A stretch of 64,000 bases of DNA from Eledone cirrhosa (taxonomy: Eukaryota), in the NCBI GenBank assembly GCA_964016885.1, contig OZ024745.1, positions 14,632,001-14,696,000 on the forward strand, read 5' to 3'. A program made the position numbers and the translations under genes. The notes below the pieces were generated by a model. It did not search any database. It worked only from the letters and a program-made list of their open reading frames with translations, and was not told the origin of the DNA. Shown piece after piece: positions 1,954 to 47,102 of the stretch; position 1 is the first letter of the stretch; each line of letters opens with the position of its first letter.

Positions 1954-4900
1954 ATGGATGTGTTAAGAGTAGGATGTTTGAATGCACGTGGCCTGGGCTC
2001 AACTTGGAAGCAAGCAAAGCTTCTAAATGACCTCAGGTCATGTAGTATACATGTAATGGTTATCTGTGAGACTCGAATCAGCGTCGTGCGGCAGCTGGCC
2101 CCCACCTTCGATGACTTTGAGGTGCATGCATCTCTCTGTCAACCTGGAGGTGGGGGTGGGGTTGTCGTACTGCTGCAAAAACACCTGGGTCTTGCCGTAC
2201 AGGTTGTGCACTCGAACCCGGAGGGTCGTTTGTTGGTGCTAGACGTTGGCAGTAGTGAAAGTGCGGCCTTGAGACTGGTCGCCGTCTACTCCCCTTTCGG
2301 AGCTGCTACTCCCCTTTCGGAGCTGAACGGCCCGACTTCTTCCAGCGTTTGGAGACTTTTCTGGGAACGTCGCGTTCCCTGCTTCTAGCGGGGGATTGGA
2401 ATGACATCCTAGATGCACGTTGGGACTATGCAGGAGCATGTCCTAATAGAGGGGGGTGTAACATCCTCAAGGGGTTACTCGACCGTTTTAACTTGGTCGA
2501 TAGATATCGACTAGATTTTCCAACTGTGCCTACCTGGACTTGGAGAAACCACAGTGGTCAATCTATATCGTACTTAGATAGATTCTTAGTTAGAAGTAAG
2601 GATAGGGACATATTAAGCTGTCCAGAAATGCGCACGGTTGGCTACACGGATCACAAATTAGTGACCTGCGTAGTCAATCTCGAGAAAACACATAAACAGG
2701 GTCCCGGTTACTGGAAACTTAATTTGTCTTTACCGGCAAAAGAGACTTACAGAAACTGGATTAGCAGATTAGTTAAGGAGAGGTTGACGGGTGCAATCGT
2801 CAACAACCGATGGTGGGCATCTCTCAAAAGAGAGATTAGAACAGAATCAATAAGTTATAGCAAGATGTTAGCTGCCGATAGGAATAGAAACGAGAAAGAA
2901 TTAACAGGTAAATTAGAAGAGGCAATCAAGAGCGAAGATGTGGCCAGAGTGCTGGCATCGAGGACGGCCTTGAACCAGTTTTTCGATGCAAAGCACGAAG
3001 GCTGCGTCATTCGAAGTAAAATACGTGCTCTAGGTAATGAGGGGGCCAAAGCCGTTGGCTGGGCCCGCGTGACAGAAGCTAAGAGTGGAAATCGATCCAC
3101 CATCCGGTCGTTGCAAGACGAAGATGGACGTGTGATCCGGGAGCCTAAGCAGATGTGCGAGGCCTTTCAAAGGCACTTTGCCCGATTGTTCGGGGGAGGC
3201 GAGGGTCCGGGCGGGGGCGTGGATTTCGGTCCATACCTCCACGGCCTGCCGCGTCTCGCGAGCGAAGAGGCAGAGTCCTGCGAGGGACCAATCTCGGCTG
3301 ATGAGATCGGAGATGCGCTGAGCCAATGCAGCAGACGCAAATCTCCAGGTCTCGATGGTATACCTTACGAACTTTATTTAGCAATGCCGGTCTTCTTCTC
3401 CGAACTCATCGAAGCGGTCTACTGCAATTGGCAGCAGAACGGGATAATTCCTTGTTCTGTAGCCAAGGGCGTAGTCACGCTGGTGAGGAAGGACGAGAAC
3501 AAGGGAGATAGTATAAATAATTTTCGGCCCATAACCCTGCTAAACACAGAGTTAAAGATTTTGGCCAAGGTGTTAGCAAAGAGGTTGGCGCTTGTCGTGG
3601 GTGGCCTGGTGGGAGATGCGCAGACATGTGCTATCCCATCCAGGTCCATTGTCGATAACCTCCACCTCATGCGATACATCATAGAGAGGGTTGGCAACAA
3701 ACCCGGCTTCGGTGGGGCCCTGATCAACTTGGATCACTCTAAGGCCTTCGATTGGGTCGACCATGGTTACCTGGATGCGGTGCTAGCGGCGGCTGGGTTC
3801 GGTCCTGTTTTCAGAGGCTGGATCACTGCCTTACATAGCAACCACATCTGTTCTAGGATCAAGGTGAACGGCTACCTTTCGAAGCCGTTCGAAATCACAC
3901 GATCCATTCGACAGGGGTGCCCTCTCTCCTCCCTTCTGTACGTATTGACTCTCGAGCCTTTACTGAGGAAGTTGGAGTTGTTGCAGGGTATCCCCCTGGA
4001 ACCAGGATTGAGCAAAGCGGTGTCGGCCTACGCCGATGACGTAACAGTAATGGTATCGACCGACTCGGAGATCGAGGCGATCGGTACCTTACTGGAGGAG
4101 TACGAAAGGTTGTCAGGAGCGAAACTGAACCGGGAAAAATCCATCGGGCTGCAACTCGGAACGTGGAGAGGCAGACCGATGCCTCCTGACGGTGTCGTCG
4201 GACACTGGACGGAGGGCCCGGTAAAGTTGCTTGGGGTCTGGTTTGGACCGGACCTCCAGGTGGAAAAGAACTGGAACGAGGTTACGAACAAGGTGTTTGC
4301 ACTAACCCAGAAATGGGCCAAGTGTAAGCTGTCCCTAAAAGGCCGGGCGGAGGTGGCGAACATTTACATAGCGTCCGTCACTTACTACCGCCTGACTGTC
4401 GTGCCTTGCCCTAAGGAAACACTCACCACCATGGAACGCATGCTCTTCCAATTTCTTTGGAAGAAGCGCCCTCCTATGGTGAGAAGATCCATCTGCTGCC
4501 AACAATCTTCGAAAGGAGGGCTGGGGATGCCGTGGTTGATGATGCGTAGGCACGCATTAAGGCTACGGCACCTACAGGTATTCTTCACTGGTCAACCGGT
4601 GTGGGCTCCGTTCGTGAAACGAGCCTTTCCGAGACTCGTCTCGCTCACCGAGCTACAGTCCTGGGTCAAGCAAAGATCCGGAAAACTGGGAGACTGGCAC
4701 ACTGAGTGTGCTCAGGTGCTCAGGGCTCTCTGGCAAGCGGGCCAGGCCATCGGTGGAGAATCCACCTCATCATTCTATAGAGGGCTGGTGGCTAGCAGGG
4801 GCGATGACACCCTTGGAGACTCGCTGGACATGGAAGAAGACGAACTGGCCAGCCTGTTCGGTAGGACTTTCGGCCCAGGACCAATGGACAACTTCCAGAA

Positions 4901-5411
4901 GTCACTGGCCTGGCAGTGCTACCGGGGGGCTCTACCCGTTCGAGAGAGGCTCTACAGACACGGGCGCCCGGGCAGGGATCCCTCAAAAAAGATTTGCCCT
5001 AGATGCGTGCGTCACGAAGAAACCGTTGCGCACGCATTGGTGCAATGTCCGGGCGTGGCTGATCTGTGGGGCTACGCCGAACGACTGCTGTTGCGGGTGG
5101 CGCCGATTCAATTGACCGCCGAGTCCGTGATGACAATCAAACCGCCTCCCCTCTTCACAAAGGCAGCAAAGGCGGGTTTTCTGTGCGTAATAGCCATGTT
5201 GAAAGAGGTTGTTTGGTGGACACGATTGAAAGGTCTGAGGTCAGGCAACTTCCTCTCTGGCCATAGTCTGGTCTACTTCTTCCGATATCACTTCGGAAGA
5301 AGGATAAGAATGGAGAGAGAGGTGCTTGGCCACAGGCAGTTTTATGAAAGGTGGGTGATAGTGGCGAGAATGGCTCGTGTAAATGGGCCTTCTCTGTATA
5401 CCATCCTGTAG
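1954..5411 (+). CDS. Tx1-like ORF2: APE endonuclease, reverse transcriptase and C-terminal Zn finger; one frameshift at about 2286-2325
   Basis: APE motifs LNARGL, ICET, AVYSP, LAGDWN, SYLDRF, TDHK. RT motifs KSPGLDG, FRPITLLN, KAFDWVDH, RQGCPLS, AYADD. C-terminal CPRC..ETVAHALVQC. Confidence 0.93.
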
Positions 5412-14415: not shown

Positions 14416-14453
<38 letters not shown>

Positions 14454-14609
14454 TAGATAATTTGTATTCCAATGTTACTAAGTAGTTGCATTGGATGGAG
14501 TCAACTGACGTCAGAGATTACTCAACGTATAATAAAGTGTGTTTTAAAATCCGGAGAAAATATGGAGAAAAAATTTACGAAATGGAAATGCGGGTATATA
14601 GAATTTATT

Positions 14610-14726
14610 AGGTAACAATTGTTTCTATAGTGTATGAGTTACCTATACCTCGCTATTTGAATAATACACAAATATTATCAAAAACCGAAAGTACACTGTA
14701 AGCCAACACACCATGTCATCAGACCT
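14610..14726 (-). ncRNA. Type I hammerhead ribozyme in the PLE pLTR
   Basis: aggt CTGATGA c-atggtgtg..(long loop)..tacactat-a GAAAC aatt GTT acct, then AATAAA. Confidence 0.7.
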
Positions 14727-15136
14727 TTGTATTAGAATGATATGAAAATATTTTATACACTAGATAAAAGATAAAGAAGGAGGTAGGAAGAGAAGGGGAA
14801 GAGGGAAGTGAGTAAGGTGGAGGGAGTCTTAGGGTTTAAGACTGTCAGACTAGTAGAGATTGTGAAGAGAGAATGTTTTGGCAGCAGTTAGCTTAATGAG
14901 GCGTGCTAAGTTTGGCTGGGAAGTAGATACTTCTAGTGGTGTTGTTCGGACAAAATTTAGTTAGAGGGGTCAAAGTGGTACAATGTCACAGACAAGTTAT
15001 TAGGGCTATTATAGTAGCAGGTTATTTCTAAAGGGGTCCAGAAAAACAGTGTTTAGTACTATTATTATAGAAAGTCATATCTAGTGTATAAACATATAAG
15101 ACAGAAATTTGCAAACGTTGGTGTAAAAAGGTAACA

Positions 15137-16159
15137 TTATATGCATTTAAAAAAAGAAAAAGTCGTTTTCAAACGATGGTTACAGTATAGAGAACGTTCA
15201 ATTTTGCTGTTCAAAAGTTTGTTTACCGACGTTAAAATGCAGTATATCTCTAAATTGCATAACTCGCAGAATCGATGATTTTGCTGATATGCAGGCGCAG
15301 CTGCAATAATTTGCCAATCAAGGGAGAACGCTTGATTGTTCCTCCGAAGCTGCCAGGCTTTATCGGCGAGGGTGGTCACGGAGCGCATTTTCTCGTGCCT
15401 GATCGAAGATCGATGTTGGTATAGGCGAGCCTTGAAAGAAGTTGCGGTACATCCGACGTAATACCATTTGTTGGTCCCGGAATTTATTGTACACCGGTAG
15501 ACAATATTGCGTGCTAGGCACTGGTTATTCAGTGGGCACGTACCTGGTTTGGTGCAGTTACAACTATTTTTATGTTTTGCAGTAGAATCCTGGATAGTTT
15601 GGTGGGGTTGCGGTTGCGTGTTAGTGCGTTGCATGTTGCTATGCTGGTGCGCTGAGTCATTAGGGATGTACTTATTCAGTATTGCTGAGTTGAGTTTTCT
15701 AATTAGTTGTTCTATGTTAGGTGCAGTGGAGTATGAGAGTCTAATGGTGCGCGAGTTAAAGATTTTATAGTATTTATGTGAAGTTGTAAAGTGTTTATTG
15801 ATTAGTGTATAGAATTGTGAGATAATCTTAGTGCTAATAGAAGAATTGTACACGGGGTTATACCATATGTACTCTCTACGTCTGACTCTATTTGCTGGTT
15901 TGCACCTGTTAGTATGCCTATTGATGTGTGTGTGTGGTGCAATACTAGTTCGACTTAGATGTGTTTTATTCATAGTACTTATGTGGTTATCGTCTGGATA
16001 TTCAATTTTCTCGCAGTAACCAGCTTTTTTAAGTGCGTCATTATAATATTCAGCATGCTCGTTGAAGGTCTGCAAATTAGACGACAGTCGGGAGATCCTT
16101 ATGAATATATTTTTAGGGATAGATTTAATAATGGAATGAGGATGGTTCGATTTTACATT
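15137..16159 (-). CDS. PLE RT thumb/linker, Cys-rich finger and GIY-YIG endonuclease (5'-truncated; possibly Naiad-type)
   Basis: SNHP..IIKSIP, IWYNP, KIFN..IRLSYS, CNC..CPLNNQC, IVY..YVG.T..FKAR..H, C.LC..E, LLN..E..C.H. The ORF-track start MYELPIP comes from the inverted pLTR. Confidence 0.88.
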   Translation of the reverse strand, partial: NVKSNHPHSIIKSIPKNIFIRISRLSSNLQTFNEHAEYYNDALKKAGYCEKIEYPDDNHISTMNKTHLSRTSIAPHTHINRHTNRCKPANRVRRREYIWYNPVYNSSISTKIISQFYTLINKHFTTSHKYYKIFNSRTIRLSYSTAPNIEQLIRKLNSAILNKYIPNDSAHQHSNMQRTNTQPQPHQTIQDSTAKHKNSCNCTKPGTCPLNNQCLARNIVYRCTINSGTNKWYYVGCTATSFKARLYQHRSSIRHEKMRSVTTLADKAWQLRRNNQAFSLDWQIIAAAPAYQQNHRFCELCNLEIYCILTSVNKLLNSKIERSLYCNHRLKTTFSFFKCI

Positions 16160-16258
16160 AGGTATAGGTAACTCATACACTATAGAAACAATTGTTACCT
16201 AATAAATTCTATATACCCGCATTTCCATTTCGTAAATTTTTTCTCCATATATATATAT

Positions 16259-25487: not shown

Positions 25488-28053
25488 AGTCAACGCGATC
25501 AGTCGCATATTTTGGCGAGGGAGACTATTCATTACATTTAAGATGAATTCTATCTCCGACAGTAATGCCACAACTACCAGTTGTGGCATTACTGTCTAAC
25601 TATATCCACTTCTAACTATATCCACTGAAGACACCTTTTATTTTAATTCGTAGAGATATCCTACTAAATACTTAATTCATTTTACAAGGATTTGCTAGAA
25701 ACAGCATGGCTGAGCACGACATCAACATCAACAACAACGAGAACGGTAAACAAAAATTATTCAGTTGTAGCTACAGAAGAAGCCGAAATTATAAATCGCA
25801 TTTCTCTTGGAGTTGCGAACTTAATGATGATTTATTTAATTGTTATAAAATGACAAAAAACAATCCCTCCATTGGCTATATGAACAGAATGAAGCTACAT
25901 CCAGAGCTAAATCACTTCACAGCGAAACAATTACGCCAACAAGCGACGTTTGTTGAACGTAAAAATAAGATAAATATTATTAATTGTAAGTCCCCCACAA
26001 CAAACATGGAATCAACAACACGTGCTACAGGTCGCCATGTTACTAGACTTCCTAGCAGCCAGGTCGAACAGTGCATTGAAATTACTATGCCTGTAAAAGA
26101 TTTGACACCACGTGTACCATCTGAGTTTACCTCGAATGCTGGGAAAAACGCTATCGATAATAATAATAATCGAAGAAATAATAAAAATAATCGAAGAAAT
26201 TTGACACCACGTGTACCATCCGAGTCTACCTCGACTGTTGTGGAAAATACTATCGATAATGATAATAATCAAAAGTATAAACAATTGAAAATTTCCCTCA
26301 ATGAAATCTTCCAGAGAGAAATTAACTCATGTATAAACATTTCTCTTGCTGAACGTATTAAAACGACAACGTTTAATAAAAAACCAAATAATGAAATATT
26401 ATGTGTTATTGATGAAATAAGGGATGAATATTTACGACGGATAAAAATCCCAACATTTTGGCAAATCAACGCCTGTGAAGCATTATCTTGGTGATAGCAG
26501 AGATATTAACAAGAACAAAACACCACCAAAAATACCATCATATATAACTAAAATAGAAAAAAAGATTGCTGACCTACGAAAAACCATAGGATATGTGACA
26601 ATGCTCCTTACATGCAAACAAACACAAAAAAACCTCACTCCTCACCAACAAAGAGTGAAAAGTAAAATTAAGACGGTGTTTGGTAACTGTAGAACCAGAA
26701 CTCTTCAATATAAGCTGATCACCCTCAAACAAGAATTGAGAGTTGTTAGCGAAAAACGCCGTTACCTGAAGAAGGTAGATGAAAGAAAAGTGCTTAATAA
26801 AAGATTCAGACGAAACAAAACAGCAGTCTATAGCGATATGAAAGGTAAAATAATAAGTGTTATTGAGGGTCCATCCCAGAAAGACATAGATTCCTTTTGG
26901 AGAAAAATATGGGGTGAAAAGAAGAATTTCAACCAAGATGCAGTGTGGCTAAAAGAAATCCGAAAGAACTATTGCTACAAAAACATACGAAATAAGTGAG
27001 GGTACCCTTGAGACTATAAGAAAACTCCAAGATAAGAAAACACAAGGAAGAGACATAATTGTCGGCTACTGGTACAAAACACTGATATTCTATCGGAGGT
27101 ATCTTACTGACCTCTACCAACAAGTTCTTAAGGGAGATACACTTATACCAGAATGGTTGACATTAGCACAAACATTACTGGTCCCCAAGAACAAAGACAC
27201 CCACTTGGCAAAAAACTACCGACCCATTGCATGCCAGAACCTGATGTATAAGATGTATACAGCCTGCCTGAACCTATTCCTCCAAGATCACTGTGAAAAT
27301 AATAACATCATCACAGATGAACAAGTAGCTGGAAAGAAAGGAGTTTAGGGATGTGCTGAACAACTCCTAGTCAACAAAACTGCGATGTCGGAGGTGCGAC
27401 AACTTAGGAGGAATATGGCTACAGTCTGGCTGGACTACAGGAAAGCTTTCGATTCTGTTCCCCACTCTTGGATGATAGAGGCCCTCCAGCTTGCTAAAGT
27501 CCCAGACATTATTATCAGAGCCATAGAGAGGCTGTCTTCTTCTTGGGCTACTATCCTAAAGTTAAAGTCAGAGAAGAACTCTATTTTCACTGATAAAATA
27601 AAATATCAGAGGGGTATATTTCAGGGAGACAGTCTCTCTGTGATATTATTCATCCTGTCATTAAACCCGTTGTCCTTTCTGCTCAAGAAATGTGAAGGAT
27701 ACATCATTGGCTCACAGGAGGACAGAAATACGAACCTAACCCATAATTTCTTTGTGGATGATCTGAAACTATATGCCAAGAACATGGATGGGATGAAGAA
27801 AAATCTTGACCTGGTTATAACATTCTCAAAGGATATAGGAATGGAGTTTGGCCAAGATAAATGCTCATATATGACTGTAAAGCGGGGAAAAACAACAACC
27901 CAATTTAGCAGCATTGTAATTAATGGCCTAACTGTTTCACCGATATCTGATGAGGTCTGCTACAGATACCTGGGGATAGATGAGAACATATCCTATAATG
28001 GTATCTGTAATAAGGAACGCGTAACCAGGGAATACTACACCCTAAAACAGTGA
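25488..28053 (+). mobile_element. Degraded R4/Dong-clade non-LTR retrotransposon, 3'-truncated (no RLE domain seen)
   Basis: The N-terminus W...N..L..CY....P..GYM.RM..HP....QL..Q is typical of R4/Dong. RT motifs NYRPIAC, WLDYRKAFDSVPH, RGIFQGDSLS, FVDDLKLY, GMEFGQDKC, YRYLGI are interrupted by stops and frameshifts. It begins right after (TACA)n. Confidence 0.8.
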
Positions 28054-33832: not shown

Positions 33833-35110
33833 GGATAAATAACACCTTGAATATATGTAAATTTTGCCTAATTGTAGTAATAATTTATAAATATTTATAT
33901 GTAATAGTTTTTTTATCCTATGATTTGATTAGGATAGCTCAATATTTAATTAGACACCAATTAAGATATATACAATAGATAGTTTAAGGTTCTTAAAATA
34001 TCGCTGGATGCGAGAGAAGTGATTCCCTCTAAGTTAAAAAATGCTTTTTACATTGTAAAAGTGTTATCTTCATTTTGTTTACATTGTCCGAACATTTTTT
34101 TATTAGCTTGGAAAAAGCATATATAAAATATAAAATATAGATTAATAAATAATAATTAATAGTTTAATAATACATAGACTATCATGAAAAGTAAACTATA
34201 TATATTAGAATAATTAAATATAGAAGTAAATATAACCATTCATTAAATGAAATAAAATTTATGGAGAGTAAATATAACCACAGTTAGATTCTAAAAAATA
34301 AATGAAATTTTAAAAATAACGAAGTTTCACATAAAGTGAAATTTAAATTAATTTAGATCATAAATGAACAAAATATAATATATATATTTATAGGGGTATA
34401 TGCATTTTAATATATTTTAATACATATTTAATAGTTATTTAATTAGGCATGAAAGTTAAATTGTTTTAAATTTGTAGTATAATATTAATAGAATATCTTA
34501 CCTTATAATAACATTGTCATAATGTAGAATGAGCTAAATTAAATTAAACTAATTTAAGCATATACATTTGTAATTAACTTAAATATTTGATTGCTATAGA
34601 AAGTAATCTAAGCCTAATAATCTGGATACAATATAAACTTATAATTAATTAAAGCCTAATCCAATATAAGCGGTATTCACTGATAAATATTAGGGAACAT
34701 TTTTAATTTTTAATTTTGTCTAGCATTTGAATACAACGGGTTTTTTTTATTCTCCCCTCTATTTTATCCTTTCCTTTTCTTTTTCTTCGTTTTCCTTTAT
34801 TTCCCTTCTTTTTTTCTTTTTATTCTCTCCGCATCATCCCTTTTCTTCTGTTTTTTTATTCCCCTTCTTTTTTCTCTCCGCACCTTCTCTTTTTTTCTTC
34901 TTTTATTTATTCATTTATTTATTTCCCTTCTTTTCCTTCGCATCTTCCCTCTCAACTCCCCTTCTATATTTCTACCTTGCTCTACGTCCTCTTCTTCTCT
35001 AAGTTTATCATATTATTTGTGGTATAAAAACGTTGAGTGTTGGTGAAATAAATCTACAGGAATTGAATAATCAAAACCTTGGCGGTATGTCGCATATCCA
35101 ATCTCTCATA

Positions 35111-35173
35111 TATTTTATCTGATGAAAACGCACTGAAACATTATTGTACCTTTGAAATATGTATAATAAAATA
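35111..35173 (+). ncRNA. Type I hammerhead (pLTR probably belonging to the 33.5-kb PLE remnant)
   Basis: tattttat CTGATGA aaacgcac..gtaccttt GAAA tatgta TA ataaaata. Stem I is 8 bp and stem II is partly decayed. Confidence 0.7.
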
Positions 35174-35441
35174 TATATTTTGGTTATGAGAATATTTTTC
35201 ATTTATTAATATTTTGAATAATTAAGTTAAAAATGTACATCTACATATGCATACTGAAATACTAGTATGCATATGAATACACACACGTATACATATGTAG
35301 ATGTACCAAGTCTTTCACTGGTTACTTTACTGTGAGCAACCCAGCTATTCTGTATGTAAACACACAGACAAACCGGTTTTTAGAGTCATACTGGTTTTCG
35401 AGGAAACGCCTTTCCTCTATTCTCCAGAAAGCCAGACAAGG

Positions 35442-35486
35442 AATATTGAACTAGTTTCGTTGTTGTTACAACTCATCAGCAATATT
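35442..35486 (-). ncRNA. Hammerhead, mirror copy in the left arm
   Basis: Reverse complement of 35860-35904. Confidence 0.85.
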
Positions 35487-35859
35487 TACCTATCTACCGG
35501 CCTTTCTGGAGAATCGTAAAAGCACATATCGTTATATGCTTTTTCTATGAAAATTAGTAGTGGGCAGACTAATTTGCATAGAGTGTGAGTACGCACCGGT
35601 TCAGCGGAGACGATAAAAACAAATAACGAAACGAAATTAAATTTCGCTTCGTTTGTAACTCACTTTTGTCAGTCATACAAAAGTGAGTTACAAACGAAGC
35701 GAAATTTAATTTCGTTTCGTTATTTGTTTTTATCGTCTCCGCTGAACCGGTGCGTACTCACACTCTATGCAAATTAGTCTGCCCACTACTAATTTTCATA
35801 GAAAAAGCATATAACGATATGTGCTTTTACGATTCTCCAGAAAGGCCGGTAGATAGGTA

Positions 35860-35904
35860 AATATTGCTGATGAGTTGTAACAACAACGAAACTAGTTCAA
35901 TATT
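35860..35904 (+). ncRNA. Minimal type I hammerhead ribozyme
   Basis: aatattg CTGATGA gttgt-aaca-acaac GAAAC ta GTT caatatt, with palindromic stem III AACTAGTT. Confidence 0.87.
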
Positions 35905-36329
35905 CCTTGTCTGGCTTTCTGGAGAATAGAGGAAAGGCGTTTCCTCGAAAACCAGTATGACTCTAAAAACCGGTTTGTCTGTGTGTTTACATACAGAATA
36001 GCTGGGTTGCTCACAGTAAAGTAACCAGTGAAAGACTTGGTACATCTACATATGTATACGTGTGTGTATTCATATGCATACTAGTATTTCAGTATGCATA
36101 TGTAGATGTACATTTTTAACTTAATTGTTTAAGCGTCAGTCATACAAAAGTGAGTTACAAACGAAGCGAAATTTAATTTCGTTTCGTTATTTGTTTTTAA
36201 TATTTTGAATAATATATATATATTAAGATTTTCGCTCCAACATAGCTGTATACATATAGCTTTGTTTATTTAGTATATCTAATGTTATATGGAATGTTTA
36301 CACGTAAACATTTAAAAGCCTTTAGTTAA

Positions 36330-36785: not shown

Positions 36786-36787
36786 GG

Positions 36788-37104
36788 AAAAGAATGAAAC
36801 GAAATTTCATTTCTTACTCTTAGTACGGCTGATACTTAAATGCAAGTATGTATGTATACGTACATACATATATGTATTCAGACGTACAATAGTATGAATA
36901 TATATATGCACACACATGCACACATATATATATGTACGTATGGGTTTACCGAACATTTATTATAATGTTCGGTTTGTTTGTTTGTAAACAAACAAACAGC
37001 CCGAATTACGCCGCACAGTGTTCAGGCAACCATCGTCGCCCCTTTGTTCAACATTGACACAGGAACGATGTACTAGTTTCAAGCTTATTAGCTATCGTCA
37101 GCAT
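36788..37104 (-). mobile_element. Diverged relative of the 467-nt hammerhead module
   Basis: Collinear similarity blocks and hairpins, ending in a hammerhead at 37068-37104. Confidence 0.65.
37068..37104 (-). ncRNA. Minimal type I hammerhead
   Basis: atg CTGACGA t-agct-aata-agct-t GAAAC ta GTA cat. Confidence 0.72.
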
Positions 37105-46905: not shown

Positions 46906-47039
46906 TAGAAGGGGTATTTAATTTGTTGGAAGTTCGACAAATATAAATATTTATAACTGATTTAGAGCACTCAACAGTATACTGGAGTAAATATTCAATG
47001 ATATTTAATAAATGGAAACTATATTTATAAAACCATATT

Positions 47040-47102
47040 TATTTTATTATATATATTTCAAGGGTACCAAAACACATTGGTACGCTTTCCTCAGATAAAA
47101 TA
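47040..47102 (-). ncRNA. Type I hammerhead, same family as 35111-35173 (pLTR about 46905-47165 in (TA)n)
   Basis: tattttat CTGAGGA aagc-gtacca..tggtac-cctt GAAA tatata TA ataaaata. Confidence 0.78.

Follow-up and report, generated by a model that had tools for sequence, protein, structure and literature searches.

We found that the hammerhead-bearing module described here is a young insertion of a protein-free hammerhead family, probably a non-autonomous retrozyme that would be copied by a Penelope-like reverse transcriptase/endonuclease from circular RNA. The insertion lies in the window (the whole stretch of DNA analysed, 64,000 nucleotides long) and is a young copy of an abundant non-coding repeat family. 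The element itself is a new family among known retrozymes, and the link to Penelope-like elements has already been proposed for these; the novelty lies in the evidence on mechanism.

The insertion is built of two inverted arms of 450 nt each, 100% complementary and separated by a 7-nt spacer, exactly as a first, sequence-only reading of this DNA had described them; the forward arm spans 35677-36126, and both reach 456 nt if extended into the target duplication (Table 1). The same reading had one 467-nt unit re-entering its own start for about 65 nt, and we measured an exact direct repeat of 65 nt (35668-35732 and 36135-36199, 100% identity, period 467). The target-site duplication that it had put at 16 bp is present and is 17 nt long, its outermost 3 nt on either side also matching the element ends, and the duplicated stretch is single-copy in paralogues of the flanking repeat (L071, L109). 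With unit position 1 set at 35668, the window insertion combines a site-B end at unit 459 with a site-A end at unit 65.

Table 1. Features of the insertion, in window coordinates
Feature	Position	Strand	Remark
Left copy of the 17-nt target-site duplication, sharing its last 3 nt with the site-B end of the inverted arm	35206..35222	+	Single in paralogous flanks
Inverted arm, unit 10-459, outer end at fixed site B	35220..35669	-	
Hammerhead copy in the inverted arm	35442..35486	-	Rfam HH9 match 35426-35497, minus strand
Centre junction: 7-nt spacer closed by 2-nt microhomology	35668..35678	.	
Full 467-nt unit, non-coding, 37% G+C, strongly self-paired	35668..36134	+	
Type I hammerhead	35860..35904	+	Rfam match, predicted fold, stem II compensatory change
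Hairpin, unit 97-134, holding most clustered A>G of other copies; window copy unedited	35764..35801	+	
Site B, unit 459-464, one of the family's two fixed sense 3' ends	36126..36131	+	
'Tail' from site B to site A, containing the 65-nt re-entry	36127..36199	+	
Site A, unit 62-66, second fixed end; the window insertion stops at unit 65	36196..36200	+	
Right target-site duplication, 17 nt, first 3 nt overlapping the site-A end	36197..36213	+	

Perfect arms closed by a 7-nt loop look like fold-backs of reads. However, the two flanks differ, a target duplication is present, the ends fall at the family's two fixed sites and most of the sampled loci share the architecture, which leaves a negligible probability that an assembly or chimeric-read artefact made the palindrome. 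The palindrome is not special to the window copy: it is the usual architecture of the family. One contig of public run X1 starts exactly at the target duplication; it was not accepted as an empty allele, the flank being itself a repeat. The site of insertion is the AT-rich end of a third hammerhead-bearing repeat (window 35060-35222, plus strand, core at 35118), which occurs again at window 46992-47102 (minus strand) and has related copies in many of the fetched loci.

The unit carries one hammerhead of type I, in agreement with the intact minimal motif with palindromic stem III noticed at the outset. Its parts are stem I (35860-35866 with 35898-35904), CUGAUGA (35867-35873), a stem II of 5 bp (35874-35887), GAAA (35888-35891) and the palindromic ACUAGU (35891-35896), and the predicted cut, at GUU, falls at 35897/35898 (unit 230/231). 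The Rfam HH9 match at 35849-35920 scored 38.6 bits (E 5.8e-7), under the gathering score of 52. Helix III amounts to two pairs around the palindrome, whose self-duplex is predicted at -8.0 kcal/mol; hammerheads with a short palindromic helix III have been described as cleaving poorly alone and well as a pair (PMC4209133). Folded as a circle, a check that the sequence-only reading had proposed, the unit was predicted to reach -160.9 kcal/mol, far more stable than 100 shuffles (z -12.6, against -7.6 for the opposite strand), and the hairpins and the stem I extension listed at first sight were present in the predicted fold. The longest stop-free frames of the unit encode 57 aa on the plus and 72 aa on the minus strand, and a search of its opposite strand for a hammerhead found none. 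Rfam matches of the unit to microRNAs and leaders were rejected as hairpin look-alikes under threshold.

The RNA structure of the unit may also be under selection. An alignment fold of 19 copies, selected to cover the range of haplotypes, predicted 149 pairs, 6 of which vary on both sides, including a compensatory change in stem II (U-A/A-U; 34 vs 37 loci); the relatedness of the sequences inflates such counts. Moreover, the hammerhead core is intact in at least 137 of about 140 loci, with only U or C as the cut-site base, and 1 of 17 core sites is variable vs about 2.8 expected, which is not significant alone. Since the compared sequences are related, these pair and core counts are suggestive and do not constitute a test.

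Given its hammerhead in every unit, its non-coding and self-paired tandem units and its long target duplication, the element is almost certainly a metazoan non-LTR retrozyme, the identity first suggested for it as a possibility. As in the retrozymes already described (Cervera and de la Pena 2020, PMC7229834; Li, Clavereau and Pollet 2026, bioRxiv 10.64898/2026.07.22.740005), a short non-coding unit with one type I hammerhead and a G+C content under 50% is found in tandem (467-nt period) and dispersed, from monomers to arrays, the predicted RNA is highly self-paired, Penelope-like elements co-occur, and the target duplication exceeds 4 bp (17 nt here; unmeasurable in (TA)n targets). The unit length of 467 nt compares with 150-450 nt in PMC7229834 and 51-972 nt in bioRxiv 10.64898/2026.07.22.740005. 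On the other hand, the available text of the retrozyme descriptions compared mentions no (TA)n targeting, no pair of fixed ends, no head-to-head arms and no fixed clusters of A>G. RNA circles have been demonstrated for published metazoan retrozymes, and are putative in the present family; in Xenopus, one of nine predicted retrozyme dimers cleaved in vitro (bioRxiv 10.64898/2026.07.22.740005).

The family is abundant. A genome search with the unit gave 191 matches at 96-100% identity from the best 38 of 910 candidates, and subfamilies extend down to about 84% identity. The exact junction of site A with (TA)n matched 2,002 times genome-wide (reversed control 0) and that of site B with (TA)n 561 times (control 0), the latter count referring to the forward strand only, as reverse rows were counted more than once. 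Both junction patterns demanded TA by design; AT-rich targets were also seen in sets of loci chosen without this requirement. About 140 of the more than 2,000 insertions were read in detail, and the units per insertion, following each other directly, number from 1 to about 147. Public DNA runs with the same organism label show units joined head to tail and, at both end sites, loose ends rich in TA; in a second organism's run, pieces of the unit were found across 18 of 30 bins. Among 24 public runs, none listed as containing the unit was an RNA run; run X4 contains the unit but is of unrecorded kind, and was counted neither for nor against expression.

We found that the copies have their sense 3' ends at one of two fixed sites, unit 62-67 (site A) and unit 458-465 (site B), which lie about 70 nt from each other, and that neither coincides with the predicted ribozyme cut. 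The expectation that copies might start at free permutation points was thus not borne out, and it is the inner ends that vary. The two sites are used as a pair. Our site-A sample comprised 99 loci from the first 100 site-A places and is not random over the genome, since it comes from a single contig and an exact match was required; 10 loci extended beyond the fetched stretch, leaving 89 resolved. Of these, 61 have an inverted arm ending at B and 12 a short B stub, so that A is paired with B in 73 of 89 and with a second A in none; the remainder have another end (4) or a single arm (12, two of which were elsewhere read with B ends). When 20 loci were picked by site B instead, the opposite end was A in 13; a single arm was seen in 3, another 2 extended beyond the fetched stretch, and 2 were compound or unresolved. 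One B+B pair occurs among the listed site-B junctions. The two arms of an insertion differ in length, by as much as 6 vs 14 units. A fixed A-B register on one multimer was considered and found unsupported, with cases pointing either way.

This pairing, together with the one-sided tail and the AT-rich targets, agrees with the Penelope-like signature claimed by the sequence-only reading. Because the window copy consists of B459 and A65, its 65-nt re-entry corresponds to a Penelope tail. Endonuclease-bearing Penelope-like elements likewise have an inverted 5'-truncated copy, a tail at one end and AT-rich, microsatellite or (TA)n targets (PMC11167929, PMC8557442, PMC3846280, PMC4209133); inverted copies, one-sided tails and (TA)n targets are described as standard for them, with inversion and tail left unexplained (PMC8557442). 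In vitro, a purified Penelope-like protein cuts both strands, extends them, and starts at two internal sites, which define the tail (PMC11167929), and the short palindromic helix III predicted to act as a dimer is a further likeness. Unlike these elements, the unit described here has no reading frame, and its tail is about 70 nt long vs 30-40 nt there.

The junctions at which the arms meet were informative on how the palindromes arise. Of 104 centre junctions, 73 were mappable, and unrelated positions are joined at 61 of them. Extra or mismatched letters are present in 42 of the 73, and among the 31 junctions without extra letters 22 have microhomology of at least 2 nt (chance 17%). Inner ends without relation to each other, brought together at microhomologies, make it likely that a palindrome consists of two cDNAs, each primed by the target, and the data fit two independent cDNAs annealing at their 3' ends. 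We consider insertion by two-primer synthesis very likely. Inner ends at unit 226-236, around the cut, number 6 of 146 (3.4 expected); a pile-up of 5' ends at the cut site, apparent in the first, score-ranked loci, was gone in the larger sample.

In L1 twin priming, two target strands prime on one linear RNA, which results in a 5' inversion with non-overlapping cDNAs. The present insertions would share with it the two primed strands; unlike in L1, both cDNAs cover the same sequence, often several times.

Self-priming has been proposed for Penelope inversions (PMC3846280), in which case one cDNA would prime itself at a hairpin; alternatively, one arm may later overwrite the other. Some observations would agree with such a fold-back, namely the 7-nt loop and identical arms of the window copy, a mild excess of near-symmetric centres (inner ends at most 20 nt apart in 12 of 73 mapped junctions vs 6.4 expected) and locus L036, in which the mixed units are mirrored on either side of the centre. 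Yet the unrelated positions joined at most mapped centres, the outer ends at fixed and different sites and the inequality of the arms all speak against it, and as an origin for the family we regard fold-back as very unlikely. The strict rule of one A and one B and the unrelated inner ends favour two primed cDNAs over the self-priming model of PMC3846280, which fits a minority of junctions only. For the window copy taken alone, the centre of which is nearly symmetric (unit 10 vs 1), a fold-back may be entertained for that reason, although we still judge it unlikely.

We next turn to the enzyme that may carry out two-primer synthesis. No coding region continuing the unit was found in the 80 loci screened, nor an attached reading frame at 30 loci of a sister family. 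The sequence-only reading had allowed that fixed ends attached to a coding Penelope-like element would indicate an ordinary pLTR; the fixed ends are there, and the coding attachment was found at 0 of the 80 loci, none of which has a unit adjoining an RT + GIY-YIG frame as in an autonomous element. That the unit is the pLTR of a coding element, and its copies 5'-truncated fragments, could appeal to the tail, inverted arm and (TA)n target as standard Penelope features (PMC8557442), to the relatedness of frog retrozymes and pLTRs (bioRxiv 10.64898/2026.07.22.740005) and to Penelope-like protein matches somewhere in the flank of 10 of the 80 loci. These flank matches, however, belong to other, diverged families, up to about 147 units stand in direct succession, and coding continuation is lacking in the screened loci of both the studied family and its sister, which makes this explanation highly improbable.

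A candidate for the partner enzyme is a young and very abundant Penelope-like family with frames of 778-784 aa and a tandem unit of about 3.0 kb (best 115 of 79,387 candidates scored), a truncated copy of which lies in the window at 14449-16198 (minus strand) with an inverted arm at 16160-16250 (plus strand). Pfam returned no significant family for the 778-784 aa protein; its relatives carry RT, GIY-YIG and associated domains, and translation motifs and these relatives point to a Penelope-like protein of the RT + GIY-YIG type. This family has its own hammerhead-like motif, with a stem II region of about 90 nt, (TA)n targets and two end sites about 110 nt from each other; in 5 of 6 two-armed loci, each arm ends at a different one of them. 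We detected no DNA similarity between this one autonomous family and the unit. The retrozyme resembles non-autonomous Chlamys elements such as MRC1 (PMC8557442) in being non-coding, probably Penelope-dependent and inserted in multicopy head-to-tail form; MRC1-type elements resemble their autonomous partners at the 3' end, whereas no such match was seen here with the one autonomous family compared. Locus L137 was rejected as a retrozyme-Penelope chimera, the insertion adjoining decayed LINE and Penelope pieces.

What served as the template can be approached from the arms and from the variants of their units. Of 76 A arms, 60 cross the cut site, 46 are longer than one unit and 28 pass the cut twice. 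Since A arms cross the cut and inner ends show no pile-up there, the template was a circle or an uncut multimer, and the earlier suggestion of a cDNA of circular or multimeric RNA gains support from these arms and from variants fixed across units. Median unit divergence is 0.79% within an insertion, 0.98% across arms and 5.33% between loci, and some insertions have about 20 units over two arms with one private difference (L047/L080, L182/L099). Of 54 informative insertions, 20 carry a rare variant in every unit. In 8 of the 54, a rare variant is present in some, not all, units of both arms; these mixed-unit insertions need multimeric circles, linear multimers or later conversion, and a monomer circle leaves them unexplained. 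A clear case of a mixed multimer template is L003 (G000:C3:328357499-328358838), in which both arms have the same deleted unit (44-141 missing) adjoining a full unit.

The variants fixed across units are biased. With three loci excluded as duplicate or compound, sense-strand A>G accounts for 26 of 56 fixed variants and T>C for 4 (p 1.4e-5), as compared with 30 and 36 among 323 single-unit variants (Fisher 2.7e-10). The base 5' of the fixed A>G was U in 15, A in 5, C in 5 and G in 1, vs 47/47/27/22, and the tally is weaker when each locus's own sequence is used (10/6/5/4); ADAR favours a 5' U, and G is rare there. Three clustered loci contribute 16 of 27 fixed A>G, the remainder being 11 vs 3 (p 0.02), and in held-out loci (23 informative of 39) fixed A>G numbered 2 vs 1 among 7, which is not significant. 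At locus L122, a 45-nt stretch carries six A>G in 4 of 4 covering copies, of which one belongs to the inverted arm. At L123, 3 of 3 copies carry about eleven, spread from position 78 to 196; both patterns are unique genome-wide. Two of the three L123 units have a private change in common, and one of them may therefore be a later DNA duplication. In a linear monomer these positions would be 3' of site A, so that a cDNA primed at A must cross the cut before it reaches them. One edited monomer copied repeatedly is the simplest reading, and rolling-circle reverse transcription of one edited monomer circle would best fit the L122 and L123 patterns; a source array for them may have been lost or left unassembled.

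A third A>G pattern occurs in 69 units at 7 places, and forcing A104G and A105G gave 74 matches at 8 places (T>C control 0). An A>G-edited haplotype has founded a small lineage (L099/L182, L226-L232 and four more places), in part as long uniform head-to-head arrays of up to 25 units; two of its places lie on small contigs and could be duplicates created in assembly.

Rolling-circle reverse transcription by a Penelope-like element has been put forward for retrozymes as a hypothesis (PMC7229834, bioRxiv 10.64898/2026.07.22.740005). The same element and the same two-primer insertion could also be served by a linear transcript that reads through a tandem array in the genome and stays uncut, with no circle, in which case arrays would come from copying arrays and from amplification at the DNA level. 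The 8 mixed-unit insertions would agree with this, as would the finding in vitro that insertion does not need hammerhead cleavage and that RNA left unprocessed serves as the main substrate (PMC11167929). Furthermore, arrays can be sources, as 7 places share one edited haplotype, and both the largest array and one with a period-2 pattern (L023) show growth at the DNA level; array length alone is indecisive for this reason, and we rejected long arrays as proof of rolling-circle copying. On the other hand, identical A>G clusters recur in successive units and in both arms without another genomic copy, whereas the units of a multimer edited independently should differ in pattern, and many long insertions are uniform, each with its own haplotype. 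We therefore view a purely linear template as improbable, and a monomer circle as the likely main template.

Hammerhead viroids and satellite RNAs are small paired circles whose hammerheads are active in multimers. A viroid-like RNA replicating from RNA to RNA and occasionally captured into the genome would share with our family a compact, highly paired circle (as predicted) with a ribozyme motif; RNA rolling-circle multimers could also yield repeated edit patterns, and RNA-RNA replication has been raised for retrozymes (PMC7229834). Unlike viroids, for which ribozymes in both polarities would be expected, the family has its hammerhead on one strand only, it has thousands of genomic templates, which render RNA-to-RNA replication unnecessary, and it bears no sign of such replication, T>C, the expected mark of an edited antisense strand, showing no excess. 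A viroid-like origin is, in our view, extremely doubtful.

These results suggest a cycle for the retrozyme. Tandem copies would be transcribed, and neighbouring hammerheads would pair via their palindromic stem III and release 467-nt monomers, which would be closed into circles by ligation; given the known behaviour of such motifs, self-cutting is predicted to be poor in a lone monomer circle. Some circles would be A-to-I edited in hairpins, as the A>G clusters suggest. Both strands of (TA)n or AT-rich DNA would then be nicked, and one of the 3' ends may prime at A, the other at B. The two cDNAs would circle for variable lengths, join by short complementary ends and be filled in, and the outcome, two head-to-head arms of which only one bears a tail, is the architecture observed. 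Some arrays later expand or rearrange at the DNA level, as higher-order repeats show. On balance, we lean towards a dimeric Penelope enzyme that primes both cut strands at two defined positions on a single circle and travels round it repeatedly, which would explain the inverted repeat and the one-sided tail and would write A-to-I edits into the germ line, one edited variant having founded seven loci.

We found no literature description of editing in retrozymes, of two-primer or head-to-head insertion, of the rule of one A and one B or of edit patterns fixed across retrozyme units, subscription journals being largely outside the scope of the search. Likewise, no cephalopod retrozymes were found in the literature, although the supplements of PMC7229834 and bioRxiv 10.64898/2026.07.22.740005 may list some, and neither hammerhead nor retrozyme occurs in the available main text of an octopus repeat annotation (PMC13282606). 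A 467-nt substrate makes it testable whether reverse transcription really uses retrozyme circles as templates, as hypothesised in PMC7229834 and PMC4209133, and how the inverted repeats and one-sided tail of Penelope arise (left open in PMC8557442; self-priming in PMC3846280). The pairing of one A with one B, the unrelated inner ends and the repeated edit patterns yield specific in vitro predictions. If the proposed cycle is true, RNA edits become heritable DNA, and a small RNA motif directs a two-ended, multi-copy insertion.

Several further repeats were seen. A retrozyme insertion has become satellite DNA in a 68.6-kb array of about 147 units (G000:C5:87617749-87686376; L050, L076-L079, L049, L016-L019, L027-L029), whose higher-order repeats differ in period (about 4, 7 and 25 units). 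A copy of the sister family lies at window 36786-37103 (minus strand), within a TA-rich satellite 600 bp from the studied insertion. Its unit of about 423 nt is about 70% alike near site A and has a hammerhead with CUGACGA and the same palindromic helix III; with two fixed ends about 60 nt apart it shows the same architecture, and there are 1,487 candidates genome-wide. A two-family profile found just the studied family and this sister among the matches listed. The genome is very rich in hammerhead-like families, with at least 8 more bearing a palindromic helix III in the flanks of about 160 loci. Finally, the window contains a Tx1-like LINE with an open frame of 1,050 aa (2259-5411, plus strand) and ORF1 and endonuclease pieces upstream (64-2388), the nearest named homologue being from Argonauta (62% identity), which makes an octopod host probable, and broken reading frames of another non-LTR retrotransposon at 25676-28053 (plus strand).
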